DNA of 64,000 bases from Thermoplasmata archaeon (GTDB lineage Archaea > Thermoplasmatota > Thermoplasmata > Sysuiplasmatales > Sysuiplasmataceae). The position numbers were made by a program, and so were the translations under genes. The stretch lies in contig JAJZXY010000007.1 of NCBI GenBank assembly GCA_021806165.1, positions 15,059-79,058 on the forward strand. The letters are read 5' to 3'. The notes beneath the pieces were generated by a model. That model was not told the origin of the DNA. It made no database searches and worked only from the letters and a program-made list of their open reading frames with translations. This document shows, piece by piece, positions 11,629 to 21,938 of the stretch. Within the stretch, counting starts at the first letter, position 1. Every line of letters starts with the position of its first letter.

Positions 11629-11922
11629 CTATGCACCCTTCCTTTCCTCAATTTCCTTCTCGAATACTAGGGGGCCGATGTAGTCACATCTCTTGCAGTG
11701 GTACTTCTGGCCCGTGATTAGGCCTGCCTCGTAGTAGAGTTCGGTGGAACCGCAGGAGGGGCACTGTCTGACACGCCTGCGGGTGACACTGACGCCACAG
11801 TCCATGCACAGATAGGTGACGGCGTTCGCCTCCCTGGTCACAGCAGTGTTGAATGAGCCGCAGTCAGCACAGTGGTATTTCCTTACGCGCACGTACTGAG
11901 CATCCTGCTGCACGTATATCAT
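11629..11922 (-). CDS. Small double zinc-ribbon protein
   Basis: Four CxxC pairs (CADC, CMDC, CPSC, CKRC) in 97 aa; convergent with pan. Confidence 0.7.
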   Translation of the reverse strand: MIYVQQDAQYVRVRKYHCADCGSFNTAVTREANAVTYLCMDCGVSVTRRRVRQCPSCGSTELYYEAGLITGQKYHCKRCDYIGPLVFEKEIEERKGA

Positions 11923-12045
11923 TACCGCACATGCACATTTTTATGTTACGGGGTGAAGGCGGAAAAATCAACCGTGATAATGACCAAAAATGATTTAAAT
12001 ACCACATACAGGGAAATATGGGTAGCTAAAAGGCGAGGGTATCAA

Positions 12046-12390
12046 ATGCAACCTTTTGAAGCGATGCAACTGATGACCGACGAATACGCTGTGAAGATAC
12101 TCGTCGGGACGATGCGGAAACCGAGAACGGCAATAGACCTTTCCGAGCTGTTCGGAATACCTATAGCGGCATGCTACAGGAAGATCAGGCTCCTTGAGGA
12201 AATGGGCCTCATCACATGCATTGAGAGGAGGCTTACCAGGGAAGGGAAGCGCATAAGCGTCTATCAGTCGCAGCTCAAGAACGCTTACATGTCATTTGAA
12301 GATGGCAGGATGAGGGTCAGGTTTGAGCTTGCAAACGGCGTGGTCCAGGACTCCGGCGACCAGAGCCTGATTACGTCAATAACGGTCTGA
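12046..12390 (+). CDS. Winged-HTH (ArsR-like) transcriptional regulator
   Basis: DEYAVKIL...TAIDLSELFGIPIAACYRKIRLLEEMGL; ATG at 12046; TATA-like TTTAAATA upstream. Confidence 0.85.
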   Translation: MQPFEAMQLMTDEYAVKILVGTMRKPRTAIDLSELFGIPIAACYRKIRLLEEMGLITCIERRLTREGKRISVYQSQLKNAYMSFEDGRMRVRFELANGVVQDSGDQSLITSITV

Positions 12391-12533: not shown

Positions 12534-14846
12534 ATGAAAAAGCTGATTATCAGTGAAAAGAACAGCGTTGCAATCCGGCTTGCATCCATACTTTCTTCAG
12601 GCAAATTCAAGAGGGAGAGCGGTGCGGGCGCTCCCGTTTACAGGTTTCAGCTCGACGGCGTTGAGTATGCCGTCATGGGCCTCAGGGGACACATAGTGGA
12701 ACTGGACTACCCCGAGGAATACAACAACTGGATGAAGGTCGACCCCAAGCACCTTGTCAATGCCGAACCGTACAAGAGGGTGATATACAGGAAGGCGGTG
12801 GATGCGCTGATACGGGAGGCAAAGGATGCCGACTGGATCATAATCGCCACCGACTTTGACAGGGAGGGGGAGCTCATTGGAATGGAGGCTCTCGAGCTGC
12901 TTAAGGCTGACAACCCTGCAACAGGCATCAGCAGCAGCTCTGACTTCCTCCCCAACGTCAGGATAAAGAGGGCGAGGTTCAGCAGCCTGGGCAGGAACGA
13001 GGTGCTCTCTGCCTTCGAAAATCTGCATGACCCGGATGAGAAGCTTGCAAAGTCCGCAGAGTGCAGGCAGGTCATTGACCTTGCATGGGGCGCCACACTC
13101 ACAAGAATGATATCTATCAGCGCGAATCAGGTGGGGAGAAACTTCCTGTCTGTCGGAAGGGTGCAGAGTCCGACACTCTCGCTCATCTCGAAGAGGGAGA
13201 TGGAGATAGAGAAATTCGTCCCGAAGGACTATTTCGAGATCCTCGGCAGGGCGAAGAAGGGGGATGAGTTCGGCATAAGCCATGAGTCGAATCCATTCTG
13301 GGAGGAGGAGAAGGTGAACGCCGTCTATTCGGCTATCAGGGATGTCAAGGAGGCCAGGGTCGTTTCTGCCGAAGTGGCGGAGAAGGAGGAGTACCCGCCC
13401 CCGCCATTCTCCACTACGCTCTTTCTGGTTGAGGCCACAAGGCTCGGCTATTCGGGCGCCGAGGCTATGGACATAGCTGAGAAGCTCTATTCAAGCGGCA
13501 TAATATCATACCCGAGAACAGACAACACCGTCTATCCCAGGTCGCTCTACCTGAAAGGTGTCCTTGAGAAGCTGTCAAGGACCGAGTTCCAGAAGGAGGC
13601 GGACGAACTCCTTTCGCAGGAGCGCATCATACCCTCCAGAGGACAGACTGAGACCACGGACCACCCGCCGATATACCCCGTGGAGGGTGCGAGCAGGAAG
13701 AAGCTCGGCAGGCGGGAATGGCCCATATACGAGCTCGTGGCGAGAAGATTCATGGCCACGGTGGCACCCAAGTCGGCCTATACGGAGATGGACGCGAAAC
13801 TTGATGTCGGAGGCGAGGTGTTCAATGCAAGGGGAAGGAGGCTTACAAGGGAGGGGTGGCGAAAATACTACCCGTACTTCAAGTTCACAGAGATGCCGGT
13901 GCCGGAGCTGCATGCCGGCGACTCCGCCCGGATAGTCTCCCTCAATGTCAGGAAGGAGAAGACAAAACCCCCGAGCAGGTACTCCCAGGGCTCACTCATA
14001 AAGGAGATGGAGAGAAGGGGGCTGGGAACCAAGAGCACAAGGCACGAAATCATTCAGAAGCTTGTCGACAGGAAGTATATCCAGGGGCAGACGATAAGAC
14101 CGACGCCCATCGGACTTTCGGTGACAGTTGCATTGGAGAAGTCGGCGCCTGAGATATGCGACAGCAAGATGACAGCCACCCTTGAGAAGGATATGGACAA
14201 GATTGCCGAGGGGCGGGTTGAGTACAGGGAGGTGTTGGGTGAGTCGAGGCAGATGCTCACATCCGTTGTCGACGAGATAAATGCAAACAGCAGGCAGATT
14301 GGCGATATGATTCGCGAAGCCATCATGAAGCAGAAGAGGATCGGGACCTGCGGATCCTGCGGAGGAGACCTGCGCATCGTTGAGAGCGCCCAGAGCAGGT
14401 TCGTGGGCTGCTCCAACTATCCTGAATGCAGGGTCACCTACTCCCTCCCGGCCGGATACCTTGTCCAGCCGTCAGAGGCAAGCTGCGAGACATGCGGCCT
14501 GCCAAGGATCAAGCTCATCACCAAGGGGCAGAAACCTGCGGAGGTGTGCGTAGACCCTGCCTGTGAATCTAACAGGAAGACCGGCTCCCTAGGCAAGTGC
14601 CCGAAGTGCGGGAAGGAGCTGAGGATTGTGAGGTCACAGAGGGGAAAGAGGTTTGTTGGCTGCACAGGCTACCCCTCATGCGACGTCACCTATCCGCTGC
14701 CACAGTTCGGCACAATCAATCCGCTCGGTTCTGCTTGCGAGGCATGCGGCGCACCGCTGATCGAGGTCAGCTCGGGAAGGAAGGGCAGGTGGCGCCTGTG
14801 CCCGAACCTGAACTGCCCGTCGCGGAAGAAGCGGCCTGATAAATGA
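12534..14846 (+). CDS. topA: DNA topoisomerase IA with C-terminal Zn ribbons
   Basis: LIISEK, IATDFDREGE, SVGRVQSPTL, catalytic ISYPRTD, GLGTKSTR, C-terminal Cys4 repeats. Confidence 0.98.
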   Translation: MKKLIISEKNSVAIRLASILSSGKFKRESGAGAPVYRFQLDGVEYAVMGLRGHIVELDYPEEYNNWMKVDPKHLVNAEPYKRVIYRKAVDALIREAKDADWIIIATDFDREGELIGMEALELLKADNPATGISSSSDFLPNVRIKRARFSSLGRNEVLSAFENLHDPDEKLAKSAECRQVIDLAWGATLTRMISISANQVGRNFLSVGRVQSPTLSLISKREMEIEKFVPKDYFEILGRAKKGDEFGISHESNPFWEEEKVNAVYSAIRDVKEARVVSAEVAEKEEYPPPPFSTTLFLVEATRLGYSGAEAMDIAEKLYSSGIISYPRTDNTVYPRSLYLKGVLEKLSRTEFQKEADELLSQERIIPSRGQTETTDHPPIYPVEGASRKKLGRREWPIYELVARRFMATVAPKSAYTEMDAKLDVGGEVFNARGRRLTREGWRKYYPYFKFTEMPVPELHAGDSARIVSLNVRKEKTKPPSRYSQGSLIKEMERRGLGTKSTRHEIIQKLVDRKYIQGQTIRPTPIGLSVTVALEKSAPEICDSKMTATLEKDMDKIAEGRVEYREVLGESRQMLTSVVDEINANSRQIGDMIREAIMKQKRIGTCGSCGGDLRIVESAQSRFVGCSNYPECRVTYSLPAGYLVQPSEASCETCGLPRIKLITKGQKPAEVCVDPACESNRKTGSLGKCPKCGKELRIVRSQRGKRFVGCTGYPSCDVTYPLPQFGTINPLGSACEACGAPLIEVSSGRKGRWRLCPNLNCPSRKKRPDK

Positions 14847-14954: not shown

Positions 14955-14986
14955 GGGTGAGGTTTCCCCCACCTCACCCAAAAAAA
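14955..14986. terminator. Hairpin plus A7/T7 tract between convergent topA and the T4SS-like cluster
   Basis: GGGTGAGGT-ttccccc-ACCTCACCC followed by AAAAAAA; on the minus strand the T7 lies 9 nt after the stop at 14996. Confidence 0.6.
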
Positions 14987-14995
14987 CACTGTTTT

Positions 14996-15832
14996 TCAGA
15001 GAGCCTTCGCCTTGAGCTCTGTCTGTATCTGTTTCAGCTCGTATGAGCTGCTCGATCTGTTGACATAGTCTGCAATCATGTTCCTGACAAGGTAGGGGTG
15101 CTTGACGCCGTAGAAGCATTCACTGGGGAGCGCCCTCGGAACATCCGTCCCGTGGACAGCTATGGAGCCGCTGGCCCTCTCCCTCCCGGAGAGGTTGATA
15201 CCCGTTCCAACGCCAGCGGATGTGACTGGAACCACATTGCCGTATGAGAATATCCTGCCCAGCAGGGAAACATGCACGTCCACATCCACGATGTTCTCGT
15301 AGCGCATGTAAAGCTCATTGTAAGTGAGGAACTTCCTGATTAGAGCGACACGGAGATTTGTTACATAATACCTGTAGGACCTCCTGTAGAAGTCGGCAAG
15401 GAGCACCGCGGCCACGCCCGCCCCTGTTGTCACACCCGCAAGGAAAAGAGTGCTGTGTGACCTGAAGAGTGGGACTGATCTGAGTCCAAGCGAGGCGAGC
15501 GCAATCACGCCTATGAACGAAGCAAGTGTGAGCCAGTGCCTGTGCCTCCTCGTCAGATAGAGTGAGGATATGCCGATGAGGAGGGTCAGAGCTATCCAGA
15601 AGAGCACAGCGCTGTTGTTGCTTGTTGCCCCGAGGGCCACGGTAACATACTGGGCGGCGAAACCCATGTCCGGGGCAACATAGGCCAGCCAGAAACGAGT
15701 GTCCATGAAAGCGTAGTAGATGCCTGACCAGAGCAGGAGCATGATGCCCACCGCATAAATCCTTATGAACGAGAGGCGGCTCGGGTGCAGCTTCTTGACA
15801 AGTTTTTCATCCGGGAACGTCTGAATGTCCGT
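14996..15832 (-). CDS. Membrane protein with bacterial PH (bPH_2)-like domain
   Basis: Frame extends upstream of the annotated GTG to (T)DIQTFPDEKLVKKLHPSRLSF. About four TM helices, then RYYVTNLRV...Y..I.DVDVHVSLLGRIFSYGNV. The only plausible start is ACG at 15832. Confidence 0.75.
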   Translation of the reverse strand, partial: TDIQTFPDEKLVKKLHPSRLSFIRIYAVGIMLLLWSGIYYAFMDTRFWLAYVAPDMGFAAQYVTVALGATSNNSAVLFWIALTLLIGISSLYLTRRHRHWLTLASFIGVIALASLGLRSVPLFRSHSTLFLAGVTTGAGVAAVLLADFYRRSYRYYVTNLRVALIRKFLTYNELYMRYENIVDVDVHVSLLGRIFSYGNVVPVTSAGVGTGINLSGRERASGSIAVHGTDVPRALPSECFYGVKHPYLVRNMIADYVNRSSSSYELKQIQTELKAKAL

Positions 15833-15895
15833 TGCGATTCCTTCCTTCGGCTCTTCTGCTTCCGCTGCAAGCCGAGCAGTGTATGCCCTGCGCCC

Positions 15896-15903
15896 TTATT
15901 TAA
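15896..15903 (-). promoter_or_regulatory. TATA-like element for the bPH_2 gene
   Basis: TTAAATAA on the minus strand about 63 nt upstream of ACG 15832; GAAGGA SD-like motif 6 nt before the ACG. Confidence 0.4.
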
Positions 15904-15934
15904 CTGATCTTGTCTGACGGGCAGTCCCACGAAC

Positions 15935-16441
15935 TCAGCGCGGGTGCAATGCCTTATTCGCATCCCGCCCTTCCCACTGGCTTCCCAGTAGGGAAAGAAG
16001 TATTGAGAGGCGCCTGAGCTCCCTTCTCGCCTGCCCGCTGAGCCTTACGAACTGCCATCGCAGTAGCACCCTTCCCCCGGCCGCAACAAATGAGACACAT
16101 TCGGTGCCCATGATCGTGTCCAGAGCATGCCTCTCAATCCTGACCGAAGCCAGTGCTGTGGCCGGTACGGCAGTCCTCCTGAAGGGCACAAGCTCTACGA
16201 TTACGCTGCCGTCCCTTATGGAGTAGAGCGTCATGACCCTGAAGAAGGGGAAGCAGAGGAAAAGGGAGAGACTCAGCGCAATCGCCGGCGCTTCGGGAAG
16301 GAGGGGAGTCAGACCCATAGACAGCATCGCTCTGTAGACTGCCTGGAACTGAAGCGTGGAAAGGAGTGATAGAGGGATGCCTGCCGAAACGTACGGGAGC
16401 ATCGATGGCCTGATCCTGACAGAGGGTGAGTCAATCTTCAC
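15935..16441 (-). CDS. Small membrane protein, two TM helices plus PH-like C-terminus
   Basis: IRPSMLPY N-terminus, two hydrophobic segments, then TLYSI....V...TAVP...LASVRIER....I.GTE.V.F; GTGA overlap with the upstream gene. Confidence 0.55.
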   Translation of the reverse strand: MKIDSPSVRIRPSMLPYVSAGIPLSLLSTLQFQAVYRAMLSMGLTPLLPEAPAIALSLSLFLCFPFFRVMTLYSIRDGSVIVELVPFRRTAVPATALASVRIERHALDTIMGTECVSFVAAGGRVLLRWQFVRLSGQARRELRRLSILLSLLGSQWEGRDANKALHPR

Positions 16442-17106
16442 CTGTCTCCCCCTCCGCCCCCGGGTCTGCCCCGACCTCCTTCAACAAGACAGGCGGTGTA
16501 TCCTGCAAGCATTCCTGCCTTGAACGAGAGGCCCACAAGGGAGACCTGGGAGGGAGAAGAGAGGAACTCGTCCAGAGAAGCAAGGCATGCGCCCACGGCA
16601 CCGGACGCGTCGCATGGCATCCCGTCGTCGACGAAATTGGAGAGGTGGATTGAAACCAGTTCCGCTCCGGGCAGCGTGCCGCGTTCGTCTATGCGCCTGA
16701 CCACATTCATCACAGCCTCCCTTGCCCCGGCAGGGTTGACTGCCTCACCTTCAAGAGCCGGAGACGGGGACAGTGGGAGGGTGGACTGCATGGTATCGTG
16801 CAGTGAGAGGGAGTGCACCGTTATATTGCAGCGCTGAAGTGTGTCCAGTTCGCCCCTCAGCCACCCTGACCAGAATGCTATCTCCAGCAGGGTTGATGCC
16901 TGGTCGTCACCGGCTATTGCCACTTCCGGTCTCGCATCCTCCTTCAGCCTGCTCCTTATTCTCTCAGCCCACCACCTGTTGCCTCCGTCCGTCCCCTCGA
17001 GTATGGAGGAGGCCTCCGCCAGCTCCTCCTCGACCTCCGCAAGCCATGAGGAGAGCATGCCCTTCAGCATCTCGAGCCTCCTCCTGTATTTCATATTCTC
17101 TCCCAC
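16438..17106 (-). CDS. Hypothetical soluble accessory protein of the T4SS-like cluster
   Basis: 222-aa ORF tightly packed between neighbours; internal pseudo-repeat AFWSGWLRG / SFKAGMLAG. Confidence 0.55.
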   Translation of the reverse strand: MGENMKYRRRLEMLKGMLSSWLAEVEEELAEASSILEGTDGGNRWWAERIRSRLKEDARPEVAIAGDDQASTLLEIAFWSGWLRGELDTLQRCNITVHSLSLHDTMQSTLPLSPSPALEGEAVNPAGAREAVMNVVRRIDERGTLPGAELVSIHLSNFVDDGMPCDASGAVGACLASLDEFLSSPSQVSLVGLSFKAGMLAGYTACLVEGGRGRPGGGGGDR

Positions 17107-17109
17107 CGC

Positions 17110-18810
17110 TCACTCACCCCCTCCTGTCAGAGCAGAGAGTTCACGCAGGGAGTCAAGGGCCATCCTGCAGATTGCACCTTCAGGCGTTTCATGCTCAGGG
17201 GCATCGGAGCTGCACATAAGCCTCTCCTCCACGGAGGAGGGCACAAGGAGTGGAATCCTGTACCTTGATGTGATGAATATGCACCTGCCCGAGGAAGTGG
17301 CACGCGGCACGGAGTCTGAAATGAACGAGTATTCCCCGTCAGAGAGTGAGAGCGATCCTCCCATACTCCCCTCCCCCCTCTCATGCCTGAAGATGAAGTA
17401 ACTGCTGCAATTGTTGAGTATCCCCTCACCGAGCGAGCCTCCCCGGAAATCATCGACATTCTGAGACAGCAGTATGACACCGAGGCCGTAATGCCTGGAA
17501 TGCCTCATTATCTCGGACATGACATTCGCGGCCTCCCCGTCCCTGGAGAGATTCCATGCCTCGTCCACGATAAGCGTCTTCCTTCCCCCCAGGCGTCTGC
17601 AGCGCTCATACACTAGGGCGGAAATGAGGCATATCATAGGTGCCAGCCTGTCCCTCGGAAGCGAGCCCAGGTCGAATACGGTCAGGGCTCTACCCCCGGA
17701 GGGAATTCTGTTTCCGCCCATAAGTCTCAGAAATTCGGCGGAGCCGTATACTGAAGCCGCTCTGTCTGAGCTGCCGCGGGAAGATATGCACTCGGCCGCG
17801 ATCTGCGAGGGTGTCAATGACGGATTGTAGGCGGCAATCCCGGATGCAAGTGCCACAAGAGACGTTGAGTCTGCAACGTCAGGGCCCCCGCAATGCCGCA
17901 GGTAGAGAAGTAGACGGGGCAGGAGGCGCACGAATTCATCTGCACCGAGGAGGTTCAGACCGAGTCCTTCCCGTGCAACATCGATAACCTCGCCGCCACA
18001 ACCAAGCCCGCAGGTGAAGAATTCACCGAGCGGGTCGATTACAAACCAGCTCATTCCTGGAAAGGCACTTTCCCTCATGACAATCAGCTTGGCGAAGAAA
18101 CTCTTTCCGCTCCCGCTTTTGCCGACGATGGCCGCATTGAAGTTGGGGAGTGAGAAGCGATCGAACACCACCGCCGATCCGTCTACTGCATTCACACCCA
18201 GGAATGTACCCATGCTGTCTGCCACATCGGTCCCTGTAAACGGTATCAGGGCAGGCAGAGAATCTGCTGAAACCACAGGGCATCCGGCAAATGAGGGCCG
18301 CCGGTCAAGTGCAAATTCCCTGAGACCGTCCAGCTGCCTGTACCTCATGTTTGTGTAGGATACGGAGCTTGAAGCCAGCTCGGACTCGACAAGTCTCCTC
18401 TCCGATTCCGCGCCCTCCTGCGAAGTTGAGCAGACAGCGAGCAGCAGGGAAGCGTAATGGAGTGATGTCCTGGACATCCGGACATCCTCGGCGAGCGCCC
18501 TGAGCTCATCGGCGTCATTGACCAGCGCGTCCGCATGCTTTCCTGACTGCATCCTAGTGACTGCTTCAGCCCCCATTGCAAGCACGGTCCTGTCGATGAG
18601 ACCCGCAGAATGGGTCCTGGACATTCTGTACAGCGAGAGGGAGGCCGATACGAAGGGGTATCGGAGCAGTATGTCCGAAAGCCATCCGGCGGGCAGCGCC
18701 GGGGGGAAGGAGGTGACACGCAGCACTGAGACCGTGCCCGACCCTACAGACAGGGAGGTCGGGTCACGGCCTGCTGAAATTCCCCTTGACCGCATTCGCC
18801 TCCAAATCAT
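17110..18810 (-). CDS. VirB4-like P-loop ATPase
   Basis: FDRFSLPNFNAAIVGKSGSGKSFFAK (Walker A), FVIDPLGEF, LIVDEAW (Walker B), RHSRHYGLGVILLSQ, ILNNCSSYFIFRH; ATGA overlap with the upstream gene. Confidence 0.9.
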   Translation of the reverse strand: MIWRRMRSRGISAGRDPTSLSVGSGTVSVLRVTSFPPALPAGWLSDILLRYPFVSASLSLYRMSRTHSAGLIDRTVLAMGAEAVTRMQSGKHADALVNDADELRALAEDVRMSRTSLHYASLLLAVCSTSQEGAESERRLVESELASSSVSYTNMRYRQLDGLREFALDRRPSFAGCPVVSADSLPALIPFTGTDVADSMGTFLGVNAVDGSAVVFDRFSLPNFNAAIVGKSGSGKSFFAKLIVMRESAFPGMSWFVIDPLGEFFTCGLGCGGEVIDVAREGLGLNLLGADEFVRLLPRLLLYLRHCGGPDVADSTSLVALASGIAAYNPSLTPSQIAAECISSRGSSDRAASVYGSAEFLRLMGGNRIPSGGRALTVFDLGSLPRDRLAPMICLISALVYERCRRLGGRKTLIVDEAWNLSRDGEAANVMSEIMRHSRHYGLGVILLSQNVDDFRGGSLGEGILNNCSSYFIFRHERGEGSMGGSLSLSDGEYSFISDSVPRATSSGRCIFITSRYRIPLLVPSSVEERLMCSSDAPEHETPEGAICRMALDSLRELSALTGGGE

Positions 18811-19388
18811 GGATTCACCTCAGACAGAAGCATGCCCAGCAGCGGATGCATTTCCAGACTGCCGCCTTCCCGTGGTCTGACATTTGCCGACCCCACAGCC
18901 GGCTCGGCGGTGATTCCGCGTGGGAGCGCCATGTAGAAAGAGCGGCCGCATGAATCAGACATGCCCGGGACTGAAAGGAAGTGGACCGGCTCCCCCTCCC
19001 CTGCGCAGAGGCCGAGGAAGGATGAAAGGACTGCCTCCCTTTCATCATCAGGGGCGAATGAGAAGCTCAGGCCGGATATTGCATACTGGCGCATGCCTGA
19101 GTCATCCTTCTGCTGTGGAAGGAGAGGGGAGCGGTGAATTCCCATCCTGTATAGGATATACGAGTGAGCCAGGTGCAGTGGCCTCCTTCCCCGCCTCCCC
19201 TGGAATATCAGCCAGAATGCCATGCAAAGCGCAGCGACTGCGGCTGAGGCAGAGGCCTCCGGAGAGATGCGCCATGCCGCAAGCGGTACTGCCGAAATTC
19301 CGAGAGTTAGGCTTTCTCTCAGCGTGAACGGACCCATGACTGCTGACTCGTAGCGGAGTTGAGAGGGGAATGTGCAGTTCTCAGCCGT
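18807..19388 (-). CDS. PrgI/TcpE-like membrane protein carrying a VirB4-N-terminus-like segment
   Basis: FPSQLRYESAVMGPFTLRES + two TM helices, then YAISGLSFSFAPDDEREAVLSSF. Start is ACG 19388 (SD GGGGGTG) or GTG 19397; the ORF-track start overlaps the upstream gene by about 200 nt. Confidence 0.65.
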   Translation of the reverse strand, partial: TAENCTFPSQLRYESAVMGPFTLRESLTLGISAVPLAAWRISPEASASAAVAALCMAFWLIFQGRRGRRPLHLAHSYILYRMGIHRSPLLPQQKDDSGMRQYAISGLSFSFAPDDEREAVLSSFLGLCAGEGEPVHFLSVPGMSDSCGRSFYMALPRGITAEPAVGSANVRPREGGSLEMHPLLGMLLSEVNP

Positions 19389-20490
19389 TCCTTCCACCCC
19401 CTGCGTAAATCCTGTGTGGGGAGGATTCCTGCCCTGTCTTTCCCCCCACTCCAGCCCCGCCAGGCCTCCTGAGCGGCTGCGCACCCAGAGGCGATACTGC
19501 CTTCTGCCCGCTCCTTGCAGCGGTACCCGCAGCCCTTTCAAGGAGGAATCTGCCGTGCCTGCTTCCTGCATCGAATGCGCCTGCATAGCGCGACCGCCTG
19601 CCGCTCACCGGTGCTGCTGTCTTCCCGCCTGACGCGGCGCGGCGGAAGGGTGATGTGAAGAAGCCCGCGGCATAGGTGGCGGCACCCATCGATATTACGG
19701 AGGCTGCGCCCGCGACCGCAGCAAATGACGGCAAACCCAGGAACTGCATCACCCTCGCACCGCCGGGTGAGATTATGAATGGCATGATGAGAGGCAGAAT
19801 GTAGGTGCCGGCTATGACAAGGGACGGAACCTGCAGCGAGCTGAAGGTGGAATATGAGGTTGCTATTGCGATCCTGAAACCCACCGCCATGAAAAAGGGG
19901 AGGAATGCCATTTCAAGGAAGAAAGAGAACATCTTCCGGGAGAATGATCTCGTGGCGCCGAAAACATCGCAGAGGAGCAGCAGCGGCATTATCGCTGCGG
20001 TGAAGAATACGAGGAGGACCCTGACAATCAGGACAAGGTAGAGCAGCATTGTAACAATCCCAAGCAGCAGGAGAGCGCCTATGCTGAAACCTCCCAGTTT
20101 TGCCGCGATGGATGAGGAATAAGTGGCAAGCTCACTGTATGGGAGGACGAAAGAGGTCATTGCATCGTTGATGTCCAGAACCAGCTGTGCGAAATAGAGG
20201 GTGAAGGGCATGAGCACGATTGCCACAAGCAGCCTGCTGAGCGTCCTTGACGTCCCTCCCCTGCCATGTATCGGTATGCCCGTGAAGAGCGAGTAGGCAA
20301 CCAGGACAACCGCCACCGCGAGAAGCGATTCGGAAATGAAAAGGACTGCTTCCCATGCACTGAGAGTCCCGGTGGTGAACAGGTTGGTCGAGACAGCCAT
20401 TGCAGGCACGATCGCCCTGAGGACGGCCAGTATTGCGCTTCTGAAGAGGCCGTCGAAGGTCTGGACCACGATTGTTCCAATTCCCGCCAC
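19381..20490 (-). CDS. VirB6/CedA-like polytopic membrane protein
   Basis: About six TM segments; L..LL.AI.L.PFT.YF.Q..LD.NDA and LYLVLIVRVLLVFF.AAIMPL..L motifs; basic low-complexity tail; GTG start with SD GAGGTG. Confidence 0.75.
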   Translation of the reverse strand: MAGIGTIVVQTFDGLFRSAILAVLRAIVPAMAVSTNLFTTGTLSAWEAVLFISESLLAVAVVLVAYSLFTGIPIHGRGGTSRTLSRLLVAIVLMPFTLYFAQLVLDINDAMTSFVLPYSELATYSSSIAAKLGGFSIGALLLLGIVTMLLYLVLIVRVLLVFFTAAIMPLLLLCDVFGATRSFSRKMFSFFLEMAFLPFFMAVGFRIAIATSYSTFSSLQVPSLVIAGTYILPLIMPFIISPGGARVMQFLGLPSFAAVAGAASVISMGAATYAAGFFTSPFRRAASGGKTAAPVSGRRSRYAGAFDAGSRHGRFLLERAAGTAARSGQKAVSPLGAQPLRRPGGAGVGGKTGQESSPHRIYAGGGRNG

Positions 20491-20499
20491 AGTTTCACC

Positions 20500-20601
20500 T
20501 CACGGCTGCAGCCTCTCCTCCACGAAGACAGCGGCCCTGTAAATGGCGGCTGCAAGGAGGGAGGCTACTGCGGCGACTTCAAGCAGCGACTGGAAATCCA
20601 T
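20500..20601 (-). CDS. 33-aa single-TM peptide absent from the ORF track
   Basis: MDFQSLLEVAAVASLLAAAIYRAAVFVEERLQP*. ATG overlaps the pilin stop (TGATG); the stop overlaps the SD of the next gene. Confidence 0.6.
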   Translation of the reverse strand: MDFQSLLEVAAVASLLAAAIYRAAVFVEERLQP

Positions 20602-20948
20602 CAGACCACCAGCGACTGCGCCAGCTGCACAAGGAATGTCGAGACAAATAGAAGGAATATTCCAAATGTGACATCCATGAAATACCTCCTTGCCTTCGAC
20701 CGCTGTTCAGGATTGCCCGTGCTTGTCATCCACATGTATGCAGTCACAACATAGCCAATTGCTGCGATGACTGTGCCGATGGCAACGAGCAGATTCCTCA
20801 CGTTCGTCAGCGTTCCCACAAGCTCCTCCTGCGGCGTTGCAGCAGACGCAAGCCCTGCAGCGGCAACAAGTATTGCCGGCAGGAGGAGCGCTGCAATGCA
20901 CACTGTTGAGGCCCTAACTCTCCCCTTTCCCGCTCCTGAACCAGACAT
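20601..20948 (-). CDS. VirB2/TrbC-like pilin precursor
   Basis: Signal peptide ending LASA|A, then amphipathic helix, TM1 (LLVAIGTVIAAIGYVVTAY), basic loop (TGNPEQRSKARR) and TM2 (VTFGIFLLFVSTFLV). Confidence 0.8.
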   Translation of the reverse strand: MSGSGAGKGRVRASTVCIAALLLPAILVAAAGLASAATPQEELVGTLTNVRNLLVAIGTVIAAIGYVVTAYMWMTSTGNPEQRSKARRYFMDVTFGIFLLFVSTFLVQLAQSLVV

Positions 20949-21113
20949 TTACTAACACCTTCGATGGCCGGGCACCGGCTCTGCCGGTTCACAGCCGTCA
21001 GGTAAAGATGAGCGGCGGAACTCACTCAAAAGGCTGACTGATACATGTAACATGTTAACAGCACTGGAGGGGTGAAAACTGTTTAATCGGGCACATCATT
21101 CTGTGGCATCTGC

Positions 21114-21938
21114 ATGCAGCTTGAAATAAGGAAATTCGGGAAGGATGACATACCATTTGCAATCGGCATAACCGACAGGGAGGGATGGTACCTGACTGAA
21201 TACGACCTCTCATTCTACACTGGCGGCGGAGGAACGGGTGTGGTGGCACTCCTGGATGGGGAAAGGATTGGCATGGCAACCGCAGCAATATACGAGCGCT
21301 CTGCGTGGATAGGGAATGTTGTGGTTGACGCCGGACTCAGGGGATCGGGCTCCGGAAGGTCGATTGTTGAGGATCTGATGGAACGCCTGAAGGTTGCGGG
21401 TGCTGATACTGTACTGCTCTATGCGTACGACAGGAGCAGGACCCTTTACGAGAGAATGGGATTCAAGTTCGACAGCGTCCTCTGGGAGGTGACGGCAGAC
21501 ATCCCCCGTGGGGCCGGGGGAAGGTTCAGGCGGGGACTGACTGAAGGGGTGTATGCCCTGGACGCAGCGGTATTCCATGCCTCCCGGAGGAGTGTGCTGG
21601 ACCATGTTTCAGGCAGGGAGGGGTGCATCGTCCTGTCATCCGGAGCAGACGGCACTGATGCATTCCTCCTCTGCAGTCCAGGCGGTGCCGAATACGGTAC
21701 AGAGGTTGCACCCTTCATAGCCGACGGCGCATCAGTCCGTCAAATGCTTTCAGCTCTCGGCGGCATGCCCGGGCCGCTGCACTTGTATGTCCCGGAGGGG
21801 AATATAAGAACCCTGGAGCGTGAGGGGCTGGGATGCAGGCTGGTGCGAAGGATACACAGGGGGTACATCGGGGATGCGGCTCTGCTGCCTTCCCTCGGAG
21901 AAAATGTCATCTCCGCAGGTTTCCTCGAGTCGGGATGA
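21114..21938 (+). CDS. GNAT family N-acetyltransferase (two-domain)
   Basis: AWIGNVVVDAGLRGSGSGR acetyl-CoA motif, LYERMGF; second GNAT-like half begins V.ALDAAVFHASRRSVL. Confidence 0.9.
   Translation: MQLEIRKFGKDDIPFAIGITDREGWYLTEYDLSFYTGGGGTGVVALLDGERIGMATAAIYERSAWIGNVVVDAGLRGSGSGRSIVEDLMERLKVAGADTVLLYAYDRSRTLYERMGFKFDSVLWEVTADIPRGAGGRFRRGLTEGVYALDAAVFHASRRSVLDHVSGREGCIVLSSGADGTDAFLLCSPGGAEYGTEVAPFIADGASVRQMLSALGGMPGPLHLYVPEGNIRTLEREGLGCRLVRRIHRGYIGDAALLPSLGENVISAGFLESG

Follow-up and report, generated by a model that had tools for sequence, protein, structure and literature searches.

The 64,000-nt stretch of DNA analysed here as one window (positions 15,059-79,058 of contig JAJZXY010000007.1, GenBank assembly GCA_021806165.1) comes from an uncultured, acidophilic Thermoplasmata archaeon of the order Ca. 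Sysuiplasmatales. Between topA and the gene of a GNAT acetyltransferase, positions 14996-20948 of its minus strand carry eight co-oriented open reading frames (ORFs) which encode the components of a minimal type IV secretion system (T4SS): a pilin, a VirB6-like channel protein, a PrgI/VirB3-like protein and a VirB4-family ATPase, accompanied by four further proteins (Table 1). An earlier note on this DNA had described eight mostly overlapping genes at this place and a Thermoplasmata-like host, and both descriptions were borne out. The pilin gene and the 33-aa ORF have one base in common, and 9 nt separate the latter from the VirB6 gene. The PrgI-like gene begins 17 nt inside the end of the VirB6 gene and runs 4 nt into the VirB4 gene. 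The VirB4 gene is followed after 3 nt by the 222-aa gene, which in turn shares 4 nt with the 168-aa gene. The sole long gap of the cluster, ~185 nt, precedes the gene of the bPH protein, which may have its own promoter. A run of seven T and a hairpin (GGTGAGGT/ACCTCACC) come directly after the final stop codon and likely represent the end of the transcription unit.

Table 1. Features of the T4SS-like cluster and its flanks (positions in the window).
Feature	Position	Strand	Remarks
topA	12534-14846	+	flank of the cluster
Run of seven T, then hairpin	14956-14986	-	read directly from the sequence; likely end of transcription unit
bPH_2 membrane protein	14996-15751	-	248-251 aa; start GTG 15751 or ATG 15742
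Membrane protein, divergent bPH-like C-terminal domain	15935-16441	-	168 aa
All-helical soluble orphan (predicted)	16438-17106	-	222 aa
VirB4-family ATPase	17110-18810	-	566 aa
PrgI/VirB3-like membrane protein	18807-19397	-	196 aa; GTG start
VirB6/TrbL-like channel protein	19381-20490	-	369 aa
Peptide with a single transmembrane segment	20500-20601	-	33 aa
VirB2/TrbC-type pilin	20601-20948	-	115 aa
Promoter-proximal palindromic motif CTGTTAACATGTTACATGTATCAG	21038-21061	-	from the intergenic alignment between GNAT and pilin genes
GNAT acetyltransferase	21114-21938	+	274 aa; divergent from the pilin gene, other flank

The cluster is a stable part of the chromosome. Identical gene order between GNAT and topA was found in at least nine Sysuiplasmatales-type lineages, namely the window and the loci L001/L008, L004, L168, L009, L010, L088, L169 and L170. 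Synteny was read from those loci with enough sequence (L001/2/3/7/8, L004/5/6, L009, L010, L088/89, L168, L169 and L170), with ~20 kb covered around each relative's locus in addition to the 64 kb of the window genome. The strict placement between GNAT and topA persists in loci whose outer flanks (CysRS, DUF835, enolase) have been relocated, and no att site, integrase or relaxase accompanies it in any related lineage examined. The most distant relatives sharing the locus have a topA identity of 63%. Pairwise VirB4 identity tracks topA identity (Pearson 0.84) and yields the same groupings. Relative to a 94.8%-identical strain (L174), no indels occur over 2530 bp. In this comparison dN/dS stands at 0.057 in the 168-aa protein and 0.092 in the bPH protein, and at 0.22 in the VirB4 C-terminus and 0.24 in the 222-aa protein. 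The proposal that the cluster is domesticated is thus borne out by synteny, by co-divergence with topA and by dN/dS values of 0.06-0.24: it is vertically inherited and under purifying selection.

The genomic setting is that of a core chromosome. The GC content of the cluster (0.56-0.60) is no different from that of the remaining window. Beyond its pilin gene lie GNAT, CysRS, DUF835 and enolase; beyond its bPH gene lie topA, a small winged helix-turn-helix-like gene, a zinc-ribbon gene and PAN. Scanning or annotation covered about 50 ORFs of the 64 kb. Every one that could be assigned is a housekeeping gene; a few are without a Pfam match. Among the housekeeping genes are PolB, DnaK/J/GrpE, thermosome, PAN, topA, CysRS, enolase, TrpRS and FtsZ, as well as exosome, proteasome, CTP synthase, ProRS, PFK and MDH genes. 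No integrase, relaxase, coupling protein, ParA or HerA was found among these ~50 ORFs, and no tRNA or Rfam family in the 64-kb window. A gene resembling type IV coupling proteins (T4CPs) or FtsK is likewise missing from the 64 kb and, in several relatives, from ~10 kb around the cluster. Searches for att-like flanking repeats gave only short, chance-level matches inside coding sequence. The hallmarks of a self-transmissible element (relaxase, T4CP, integrase, att, tRNA and a patchy distribution) are therefore not those of this 64-kb window, as the earlier note had already held for its mobility genes and repeats. A scan for sigma-70 promoters and intrinsic terminators, a method ill-suited to an archaeon, gave no more than shuffled sequence did; the intergenic regions were inspected by eye.

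The first gene of the cluster encodes a pilin of the VirB2/TrbC type. It exceeds the gathering cutoffs of both Pfam T4SS_pilin (35.7 bits, 9.3e-9) and Pfam TrbC (35.0 bits, 1.7e-8). Hydropathy indicates a signal peptide and two hydrophobic helices separated by the basic loop NPEQRSKARRYF. Over the nine lineages, identity amounts to 22% in the signal region versus 77% in the mature region, and the jump in conservation begins at A-x-A / TPQQEL. Because conservation rises just after the A-x-A site, processing by signal peptidase is predicted, and the pattern fits that of TedC, a pilin processed by signal peptidase (PMC9905601), and of bacterial VirB2. The pilin also weakly matches the Mycoplasma pilin-like conjugal protein family NF045849 (4e-4), and its profile cross-matches proteins of the bacterial candidate phyla radiation (CPR). 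Against PDB sequences, it matched only designed helical proteins.

The 33-aa ORF, with its single transmembrane (TM) segment, is translationally coupled to the pilin gene. It is kept at the same place in six lineages with the conserved motif LL..YR..VF.E..L.P, and pN is lower than pS in 15/15 pairs. It was not present in L009, L010, L088 and L169.

The ATPase belongs to the VirB4 family, as the earlier note had it, and is distinct from HerA, FtsK and T4CPs. Its top curated models are NCBIfam VirB4_plasma, from Mycoplasma integrative and conjugative elements (ICEs; 8.5e-28, 96.5 bits against an equivalog cutoff of 590), and the Firmicutes CD1110 family (1.3e-24, 86.5 bits against an equivalog cutoff of 325); HerA (0.12) and VirD4-like (0.023) models match far less well. 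The best match among PDB sequences is VirB4 4AG5 (8e-26), with HerA at 1e-6. Based on its AlphaFold2 (AF2) model, the fused ortholog P0013 adopts a fold that matches R388 TrwK/VirB4 at 3.7e-21 over ~580 columns, and HerA (4e-11), FtsK (1e-7) and TrwB (2e-7) more weakly. Walker A (GKSGSGKS, residues 230-237), Walker B (DEAW, 416-419) and the other VirB4 ATPase motifs are invariant in 13 homologs. An identity as HerA or FtsK is ruled out both by sequence and by the predicted fold of P0013.

A polytopic protein of the VirB6/TrbL type adjoins the ATPase at one remove. Hydropathy gives it at least 7 TM segments. The window protein matches Pfam TrbL under the gathering score (E=6.6e-4), while the same model matches six of the nine orthologs (best 1.1e-6) and TrbL_3 is a precomputed annotation on the window protein. 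The VirB6 profile found no match among PDB sequences. The C-terminal ~100 aa (window 19381-19690) form a basic, Arg/Gly-rich cytoplasmic tail, poorly conserved (27%) except for F..G..H and a terminal H(R/K)IY that is invariant in nine lineages.

The PrgI/VirB3-like protein required more care. The earlier note had called it PrgI-like. Its gene lies in a 259-aa ORF starting at 19586, but ortholog alignment and a codon check place the true start at GTG 19397, which the orthologs share: the longer ORF is an over-extension of a 196-aa protein. The window protein has no Pfam match. Its closest ortholog, that of L168, matches PrgI at 1.3e-4, under the gathering score. In the other direction, the ORFs that a hidden Markov model (HMM) of the family picks out upstream of CPR VirB4 genes are bona fide PrgI (27.6-46 bits). 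A sister Thermoplasmata clade has PrgI-VirB4 fusions, one of which passes the PrgI gathering score; in an hhalign comparison, the family is collinear with their N-termini over 173 columns (E=1.7e-3, probability 15.7%). This reciprocal evidence supports the PrgI call, although no single test is decisive.

The same comparison points to the history of the gene. The alignment extends beyond the TM region into the ‘VNF...SF’ segment that opens the VirB4 N-domain, and the window VirB4 can be aligned only from residue 318 of the PrgI-VirB4 fusion protein onward. The 196-aa protein thus appears to carry the first segment of the VirB4 N-terminal domain as well. In the basal lineages L088/L089 and L169, VirB3-VirB4 is a single ORF of 691-774 aa (L088 9251-11575; L169 8570-10645), and the fusions of the sister Thermoplasmata clade (P0014-P0018) measure 858-921 aa. 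The window and its nearer relatives have two translationally coupled genes instead, divided within the VirB4 N-domain. With one ORF in the basal lineages and two in the nearer ones, the Sysuiplasmataceae-like lineages share a conserved fission of a VirB3-VirB4 fusion whose two halves remain translationally coupled. Coverage of the VirB4 N-terminus by a protein of its own has a precedent in TrsD of pGO1 and of CPR bacteria (PMC12102498), and one of a different kind in CedB/CedD (PMC11868833). On the window's own contig as assembled in Logan SRR7275281 (L087 9430-10001), the automatic gene call omits the 196-aa PrgI-like gene; pipeline annotations of such clusters will tend to miss VirB3.

The three distal genes have a much narrower distribution. 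The 222-aa protein falls into 13 clusters in 5.8 billion proteins, none with a Pfam domain, and its profile retrieves 18 relatives, plus two repetitive proteins, from 1.84 billion representatives. Its AF2 model is all-helical and of low confidence (pLDDT 62, pTM 0.39), and Foldseek against the PDB gave nothing below E=0.45. The 168-aa gene is translationally coupled to it. Its product was found only in Sysuiplasmatales-type loci. In the ortholog alignment, it combines the N-terminal motif RPSxxPY with two hydrophobic segments and, at the C-terminus, a divergent bPH-like domain. The last gene encodes a bPH_2 (YdbS/YdbT-like) membrane protein with 3-4 TM segments (Pfam bPH_2 28.1 bits, cutoff 22). 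The earlier note had called both of these proteins PH-like. The call is firm for the last one, whereas a PH-like nature of the 168-aa protein, which has no Pfam match, is suggested by the two-TM and YdbS-like alignment pattern. The bPH protein has 14 homolog clusters, on cluster-bearing contigs wherever the contig could be matched. HMMs of the three proteins found nothing in ~150 other VirB4 loci (CPR and other Thermoplasmata). By this distribution, the three proteins appear lineage-specific and strictly co-occurring with the cluster, and because their phyletic pattern is the same as that of the cluster, they very probably belong to the machine.

Upstream of the pilin gene lies a cis-element conserved along with the genes. 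The block reads CTGTTAAC-N-TGTTACATGTAWCAG and contains a core 16-bp palindrome, CTGTTACATGTAACAG, and a third half-site; a T-rich, TATA-like stretch comes after it. It is the sole conserved block of the region between the GNAT and pilin genes, the remainder of which is unalignable, and the window has it just once, where chance would give 0 matches. Every Sysuiplasmatales-type locus has it (for example L010 7179-7202, L088 7905-7916 and L001 7666-7681), L169 only as a variant seen in the alignment, and the palindrome is perfect in L010 and L088. A 12-mer of the motif has only 2 matches in the other 158 loci. Such a phylogenetic footprint is predicted to be the operator of a dimeric regulator. 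It suggests conditional expression of the operon, and may also control the divergent GNAT gene. A candidate regulator is the winged-helix-like gene of ~114 aa between topA and PAN (window 12048-12390, plus strand; the ORF 11872-12390 has no Pfam match). It adjoins a zinc-ribbon gene (11629-11922, minus strand), and both are kept in all related loci. A second candidate is an HTH_3 gene beside PAN.

Some variation is seen around the promoter. L009 and L010 (7239-7613) have an extra 124-aa ORF between the operator motif and the pilin gene, and L170 (3687-3905) an extra 72-aa DUF1059 protein between the GNAT and pilin genes. In every lineage the GNAT gene lies beside the cluster, also where rearrangement has affected the outer flanks. 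TraX N-acetylates F-pilin, and by analogy a role of the GNAT protein in pilin modification is conceivable.

VirB4 homologs at 32-44% identity are found in Ca. Sysuiplasmataceae, Ca. Sysuiplasma superficiale and unclassified Thermoplasmata metagenome-assembled genomes (MAGs). The nearest VirB4s outside the order, at 23-29% identity, are those of other Thermoplasmata, in two further clades of which one includes Ca. Lutacidiplasma, and of many Patescibacteria (Microgenomates-type). Among the plasmid matches listed, the best are haloarchaeal ‘transfer complex’ proteins and CD1110-type ATPases of Firmicutes and Actinobacteria; all are partial and 21-35% identical, and no close plasmid relative was found. 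In a rough neighbour-joining tree (50 bootstraps, few references, rooted on Sulfolobus pING1, with CedB, CedD and TedB left out), the Sysuiplasmatales VirB4s are monophyletic in 100% of the bootstraps. The Thermoplasmata sequences come together (52%), then join the haloarchaeal plasmid VirB4 (78%), and this archaeal group sits beside CPR and a Bacillus plasmid (90%), so that VirB4 falls outside the CPR clade. These results are indicative of a system belonging to the broad radiation of the FATA type of mating-pair formation (MPF-FATA), outside the CPR clade and outside Ced.

VirB4-VirB6 clusters also exist in the two further Thermoplasmata clades, where the contigs reach 888 kb. One clade comprises L073 (Ca. 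Lutacidiplasma silvani), L035, L055, L070, L074 and L084, the other L012, L027, L040, L082, L086 and L090. The L073 cluster adjoins fibrillarin, and no coupling protein was recognised there; of ten plausible ORFs scanned near its VirB4, just three could be assigned (fibrillarin, an Ig-domain protein and an MFS transporter), the high GC content making the ORF calls unreliable. In L086, VirB4 is followed by an unassigned 1145-aa protein, and an IS605-type TnpB lies ~9 kb away. T4SS-like clusters may therefore be widespread in the class Thermoplasmata. Many third-party annotation (TPA) MAG records titled ‘uncultured Gammaproteobacteria bacterium’ (L015-L085) have VirB4s that, in the tree, cluster tightly with Levyibacteriota and Gottesmanbacteria (Patescibacteria); these titles look like mislabels.

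In comparison with known systems, the locus resembles the crenarchaeal DNA-import machines in architecture. The Ted system of Thermoproteales (TedC pilin, VirB6-like TedA, VirB4-like TedB; PMC9905601) is likewise a chromosomal, domesticated, minimal VirB2-VirB6-VirB4 core, has a cleavable pilin signal peptide and no relaxase or coupling protein, and extends across a whole archaeal order. It belongs to another phylum and often has ParA/VirC1, HerA and Rad50 as neighbours, none of which occur here. The present locus adds, in a comparison by architecture only, the PrgI/VirB3-like gene, the 33-aa peptide, the helical orphan and the two bPH proteins. The Ced system found in Sulfolobales and Desulfurococcales (CedA, CedA1, CedA2, CedB, CedD and CedE; PMC9905601, PMC11868833) also combines a chromosomal pilin, a VirB6-like and a VirB4-like protein with small accessory proteins of 1-2 TM segments, and distributes the VirB4 N-domain over two polypeptides, CedB/CedD there and the 196-aa protein and VirB4 here. 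However, the Ced split is a paralogous ATPase pair and the present one a gene fission, and the Ced pilin is unprocessed whereas that of the locus has a signal peptide. The VirB4 matches the CedB model at 2e-7 with 29.9 bits, against a cutoff of 700, and CedD at E=0.093; Ced models found no match in the pilin, the channel protein or the other small cluster proteins. The label ‘Ced/Ted-like’ given to the locus in the earlier note thus holds for architecture and genomic status, and membership of Ced does not.

Other relatives are bacterial or plasmid-borne. The Patescibacteria T4SS (PMC12102498, PMC12857230) has an MPF-FATA-related VirB4, a VirB2-type pilin in a monoderm and PrgI/VirB3 beside VirB4. 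Its TrsD covers the VirB4 N-terminal part, like the 196-aa protein, and it is chromosomal and usually without relaxase. Patescibacteria also provide the best bacterial matches of the VirB4, pilin and PrgI profiles. The locus differs from it in having no pilin arrays and no VirB1, VirB8 or T4CP homologs, in its accessory proteins, and in a host that looks metabolically self-sufficient, unlike Patescibacteria. The minimal MPF-FATA apparatus of the Mycoplasma ICE/CD1110 type, source of the top curated VirB4 models, is without VirB1 or VirB8 (PMC12857230), but resides on ICEs with VirD4 and integration functions, which the locus does not. The closest plasmid-borne VirB4s are those of the ‘transfer complex’ of haloarchaeal megaplasmids (e.g., Haloprofundus pMHR1-2; ~27-34% identity, partial). 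Those clusters differ in being plasmid-borne, in their large extra conjugal transfer proteins and in having no accessory genes in common with the locus.

From these components, a working order can be proposed for the machine. The pilin precursor would enter the membrane and lose its signal peptide by cleavage directly ahead of the conserved TPQQEL. A VirB4 hexamer would be tethered to the membrane by the PrgI/VirB3-like protein, which would supply the first piece of the VirB4 N-domain. The ATPase could then pull pilin out of the membrane and, on the VirB6-type platform, polymerise it into a hollow filament that contains lipid. The PH-domain proteins, the 33-aa peptide and the 222-aa protein probably fill the scaffold or gating roles of VirB8/VirB10 or of a coupling protein. 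Expression would not be constitutive, a dedicated regulator switching the operon on via the palindromic operator. The most likely use of the machine would be to pass chromosomal DNA between cells of one lineage on contact, as with Ced and Ted. Because no coupling protein or relaxase accompanies the machine, import would be more probable than export.

We consider the chances about even that this domesticated operon builds a minimal, single-membrane T4SS pilus machine whose most likely role is intralineage DNA transfer. DNA exchange is favoured because T4SSs without a coupling protein, such as the ComB system of H. pylori, are typically importers, and because the genome looks free-living. A further reason is that DNA is imported by both Ced and Ted, the only domesticated T4SS derivatives of archaea characterised so far; T4SSs without relaxase or coupling protein include these two (PMC9905601, PMC11868833) and that of Patescibacteria (PMC12102498).

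Several points weigh against this assignment. HerA, NurA, Rad50 and ParA are all missing beside the cluster, unlike in many Ted loci, and the genome outside the 64 kb could still encode an analogue of a coupling protein or relaxase. The VirB3 assignment of the 196-aa protein draws on weak single scores; in the AF2 model of the fused ortholog P0013, residues 1-156 have pLDDT <50 save for one TM helix and are uninformative on the N-domain. The closest non-archaeal VirB4s are those of Patescibacteria, whose T4SS may not move DNA. Finally, VirB4 is normally the most conserved T4SS protein, whereas here it is among the fastest-evolving, an inversion of the typical rate pattern: its mean identity across lineages is 38%, with a stretch of 18% at residues 301-400, while the mature pilin reaches 77%, the bPH protein 59% and VirB6 52% (neighbouring topA 67%, PAN 86%).

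The same machine might handle a cargo other than DNA, in cell or surface contact or in the secretion or uptake of protein, lipid or nutrients, an idea we regard as a serious rival but on the unlikely side. A non-DNA role has been proposed for the chromosomal, relaxase-less Patescibacteria T4SS, which is essential for epibiotic growth (PMC12102498, PMC12857230), and it is among these bacteria that the VirB4 finds its closest non-archaeal relatives and the pilin and PrgI profiles their CPR cross-matches. Genes for DNA processing are absent from the operon and its neighbourhood, the strong conservation of the mature pilin would be expected of a constrained structural or adhesive filament, and bPH_2 membrane proteins have been linked to peptide export (PMC8657885). 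This is countered by the rough tree, in which the Sysuiplasmatales VirB4s group with archaeal ones, including that of a haloarchaeal plasmid, and outside CPR. Moreover, the normal glycolytic, nucleotide and cofactor enzymes of the window give no sign of host dependence, and the operon has no candidate effector or adhesin gene.

It is fairly improbable, though likewise a serious rival, that the cluster is the mating-pair-formation half of a system whose coupling ATPase and DNA-processing functions are encoded elsewhere, and which exports chromosomal or plasmid DNA. Such a system would resemble ICE-driven chromosomal transfer in Mycoplasma or Hfr-like transfer, and both the top curated VirB4 models (Mycoplasma ICE and Firmicutes CD1110 conjugation ATPases) and the weak match of the pilin to the Mycoplasma conjugal protein family point that way. 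In addition, t4cp genes often lie far from virB4 (PMC12102498), and archaeal conjugative plasmids are also without recognisable relaxase (PMC9905601, PMC12857230). Nevertheless, no T4CP/FtsK-like gene appeared in the window or, in several relatives, within ~10 kb of the cluster, plasmid VirB4 matches all stay partial and below ~35% identity, and the conserved core-genome position speaks against a link to mobile elements. As for a decaying ICE or plasmid remnant without present function, the missing VirB1, VirB8, T4CP and relaxase, the split of VirB3-VirB4 into two ORFs and the fast divergence of VirB4 might suggest it, but it is very unlikely because of synteny (about eight intact genes in the same order and site throughout), co-divergence with topA, purifying selection without indels and the lack of an integrase, att repeat or tRNA in the window, to which the invariant ATPase motifs, the conserved, translationally coupled VirB3/VirB4 split and the conserved palindrome can be added.

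Set against earlier work, a domesticated T4SS in this order would be new. In 2023, hyperthermophilic Crenarchaeota were described as the only organisms to have domesticated the conjugation apparatus (PMC9905601); such domestication has since been found in Patescibacteria. In the searchable literature, chromosomal archaeal T4SS derivatives were found only in Crenarchaeota (PMC9905601, PMC11868833, PMC12857230), the original description of the Sysuiplasmatales (PMC8552897) lying outside that scope. Thermoplasmata appear in it with a passing mention of a VirB4 gene in ‘E-plasma’ (PMC10354927), and T4SS genes are mentioned neither in the Lutacidiplasmatales paper nor in that on Thermoplasmatales pili. 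The locus represents such a domesticated minimal T4SS, with accessory genes that are new and in a phylum that is new for it, and looks like the third archaeal domestication of a conjugation machine and the first outside Crenarchaeota. More tentatively, and with the odds somewhat against it, it could be a third independently domesticated archaeal machine for regulated chromosomal DNA exchange, here among acidophilic Thermoplasmata, in which the two PH-domain membrane proteins, the helical orphan and the 33-aa peptide would form an accessory module not seen before that replaces the coupling protein and VirB8-type scaffold.

The locus offers a compact set of accessory proteins, a natural VirB3-VirB4 fusion/fission series and a conserved operator, and its highly conserved pilin is a good target for cryo-EM in comparison with Ced, Ted and bacterial mating pili. 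A vertically inherited, relaxase-less operon in an order of Thermoplasmata would show that domestication took place repeatedly, and also in non-hyperthermophiles. This would bear on gene exchange and DNA repair in uncultured archaea. If the interpretation is true, the related VirB4-VirB6 clusters in other Thermoplasmata orders would imply that T4SS-derived DNA exchange is widespread in archaea.

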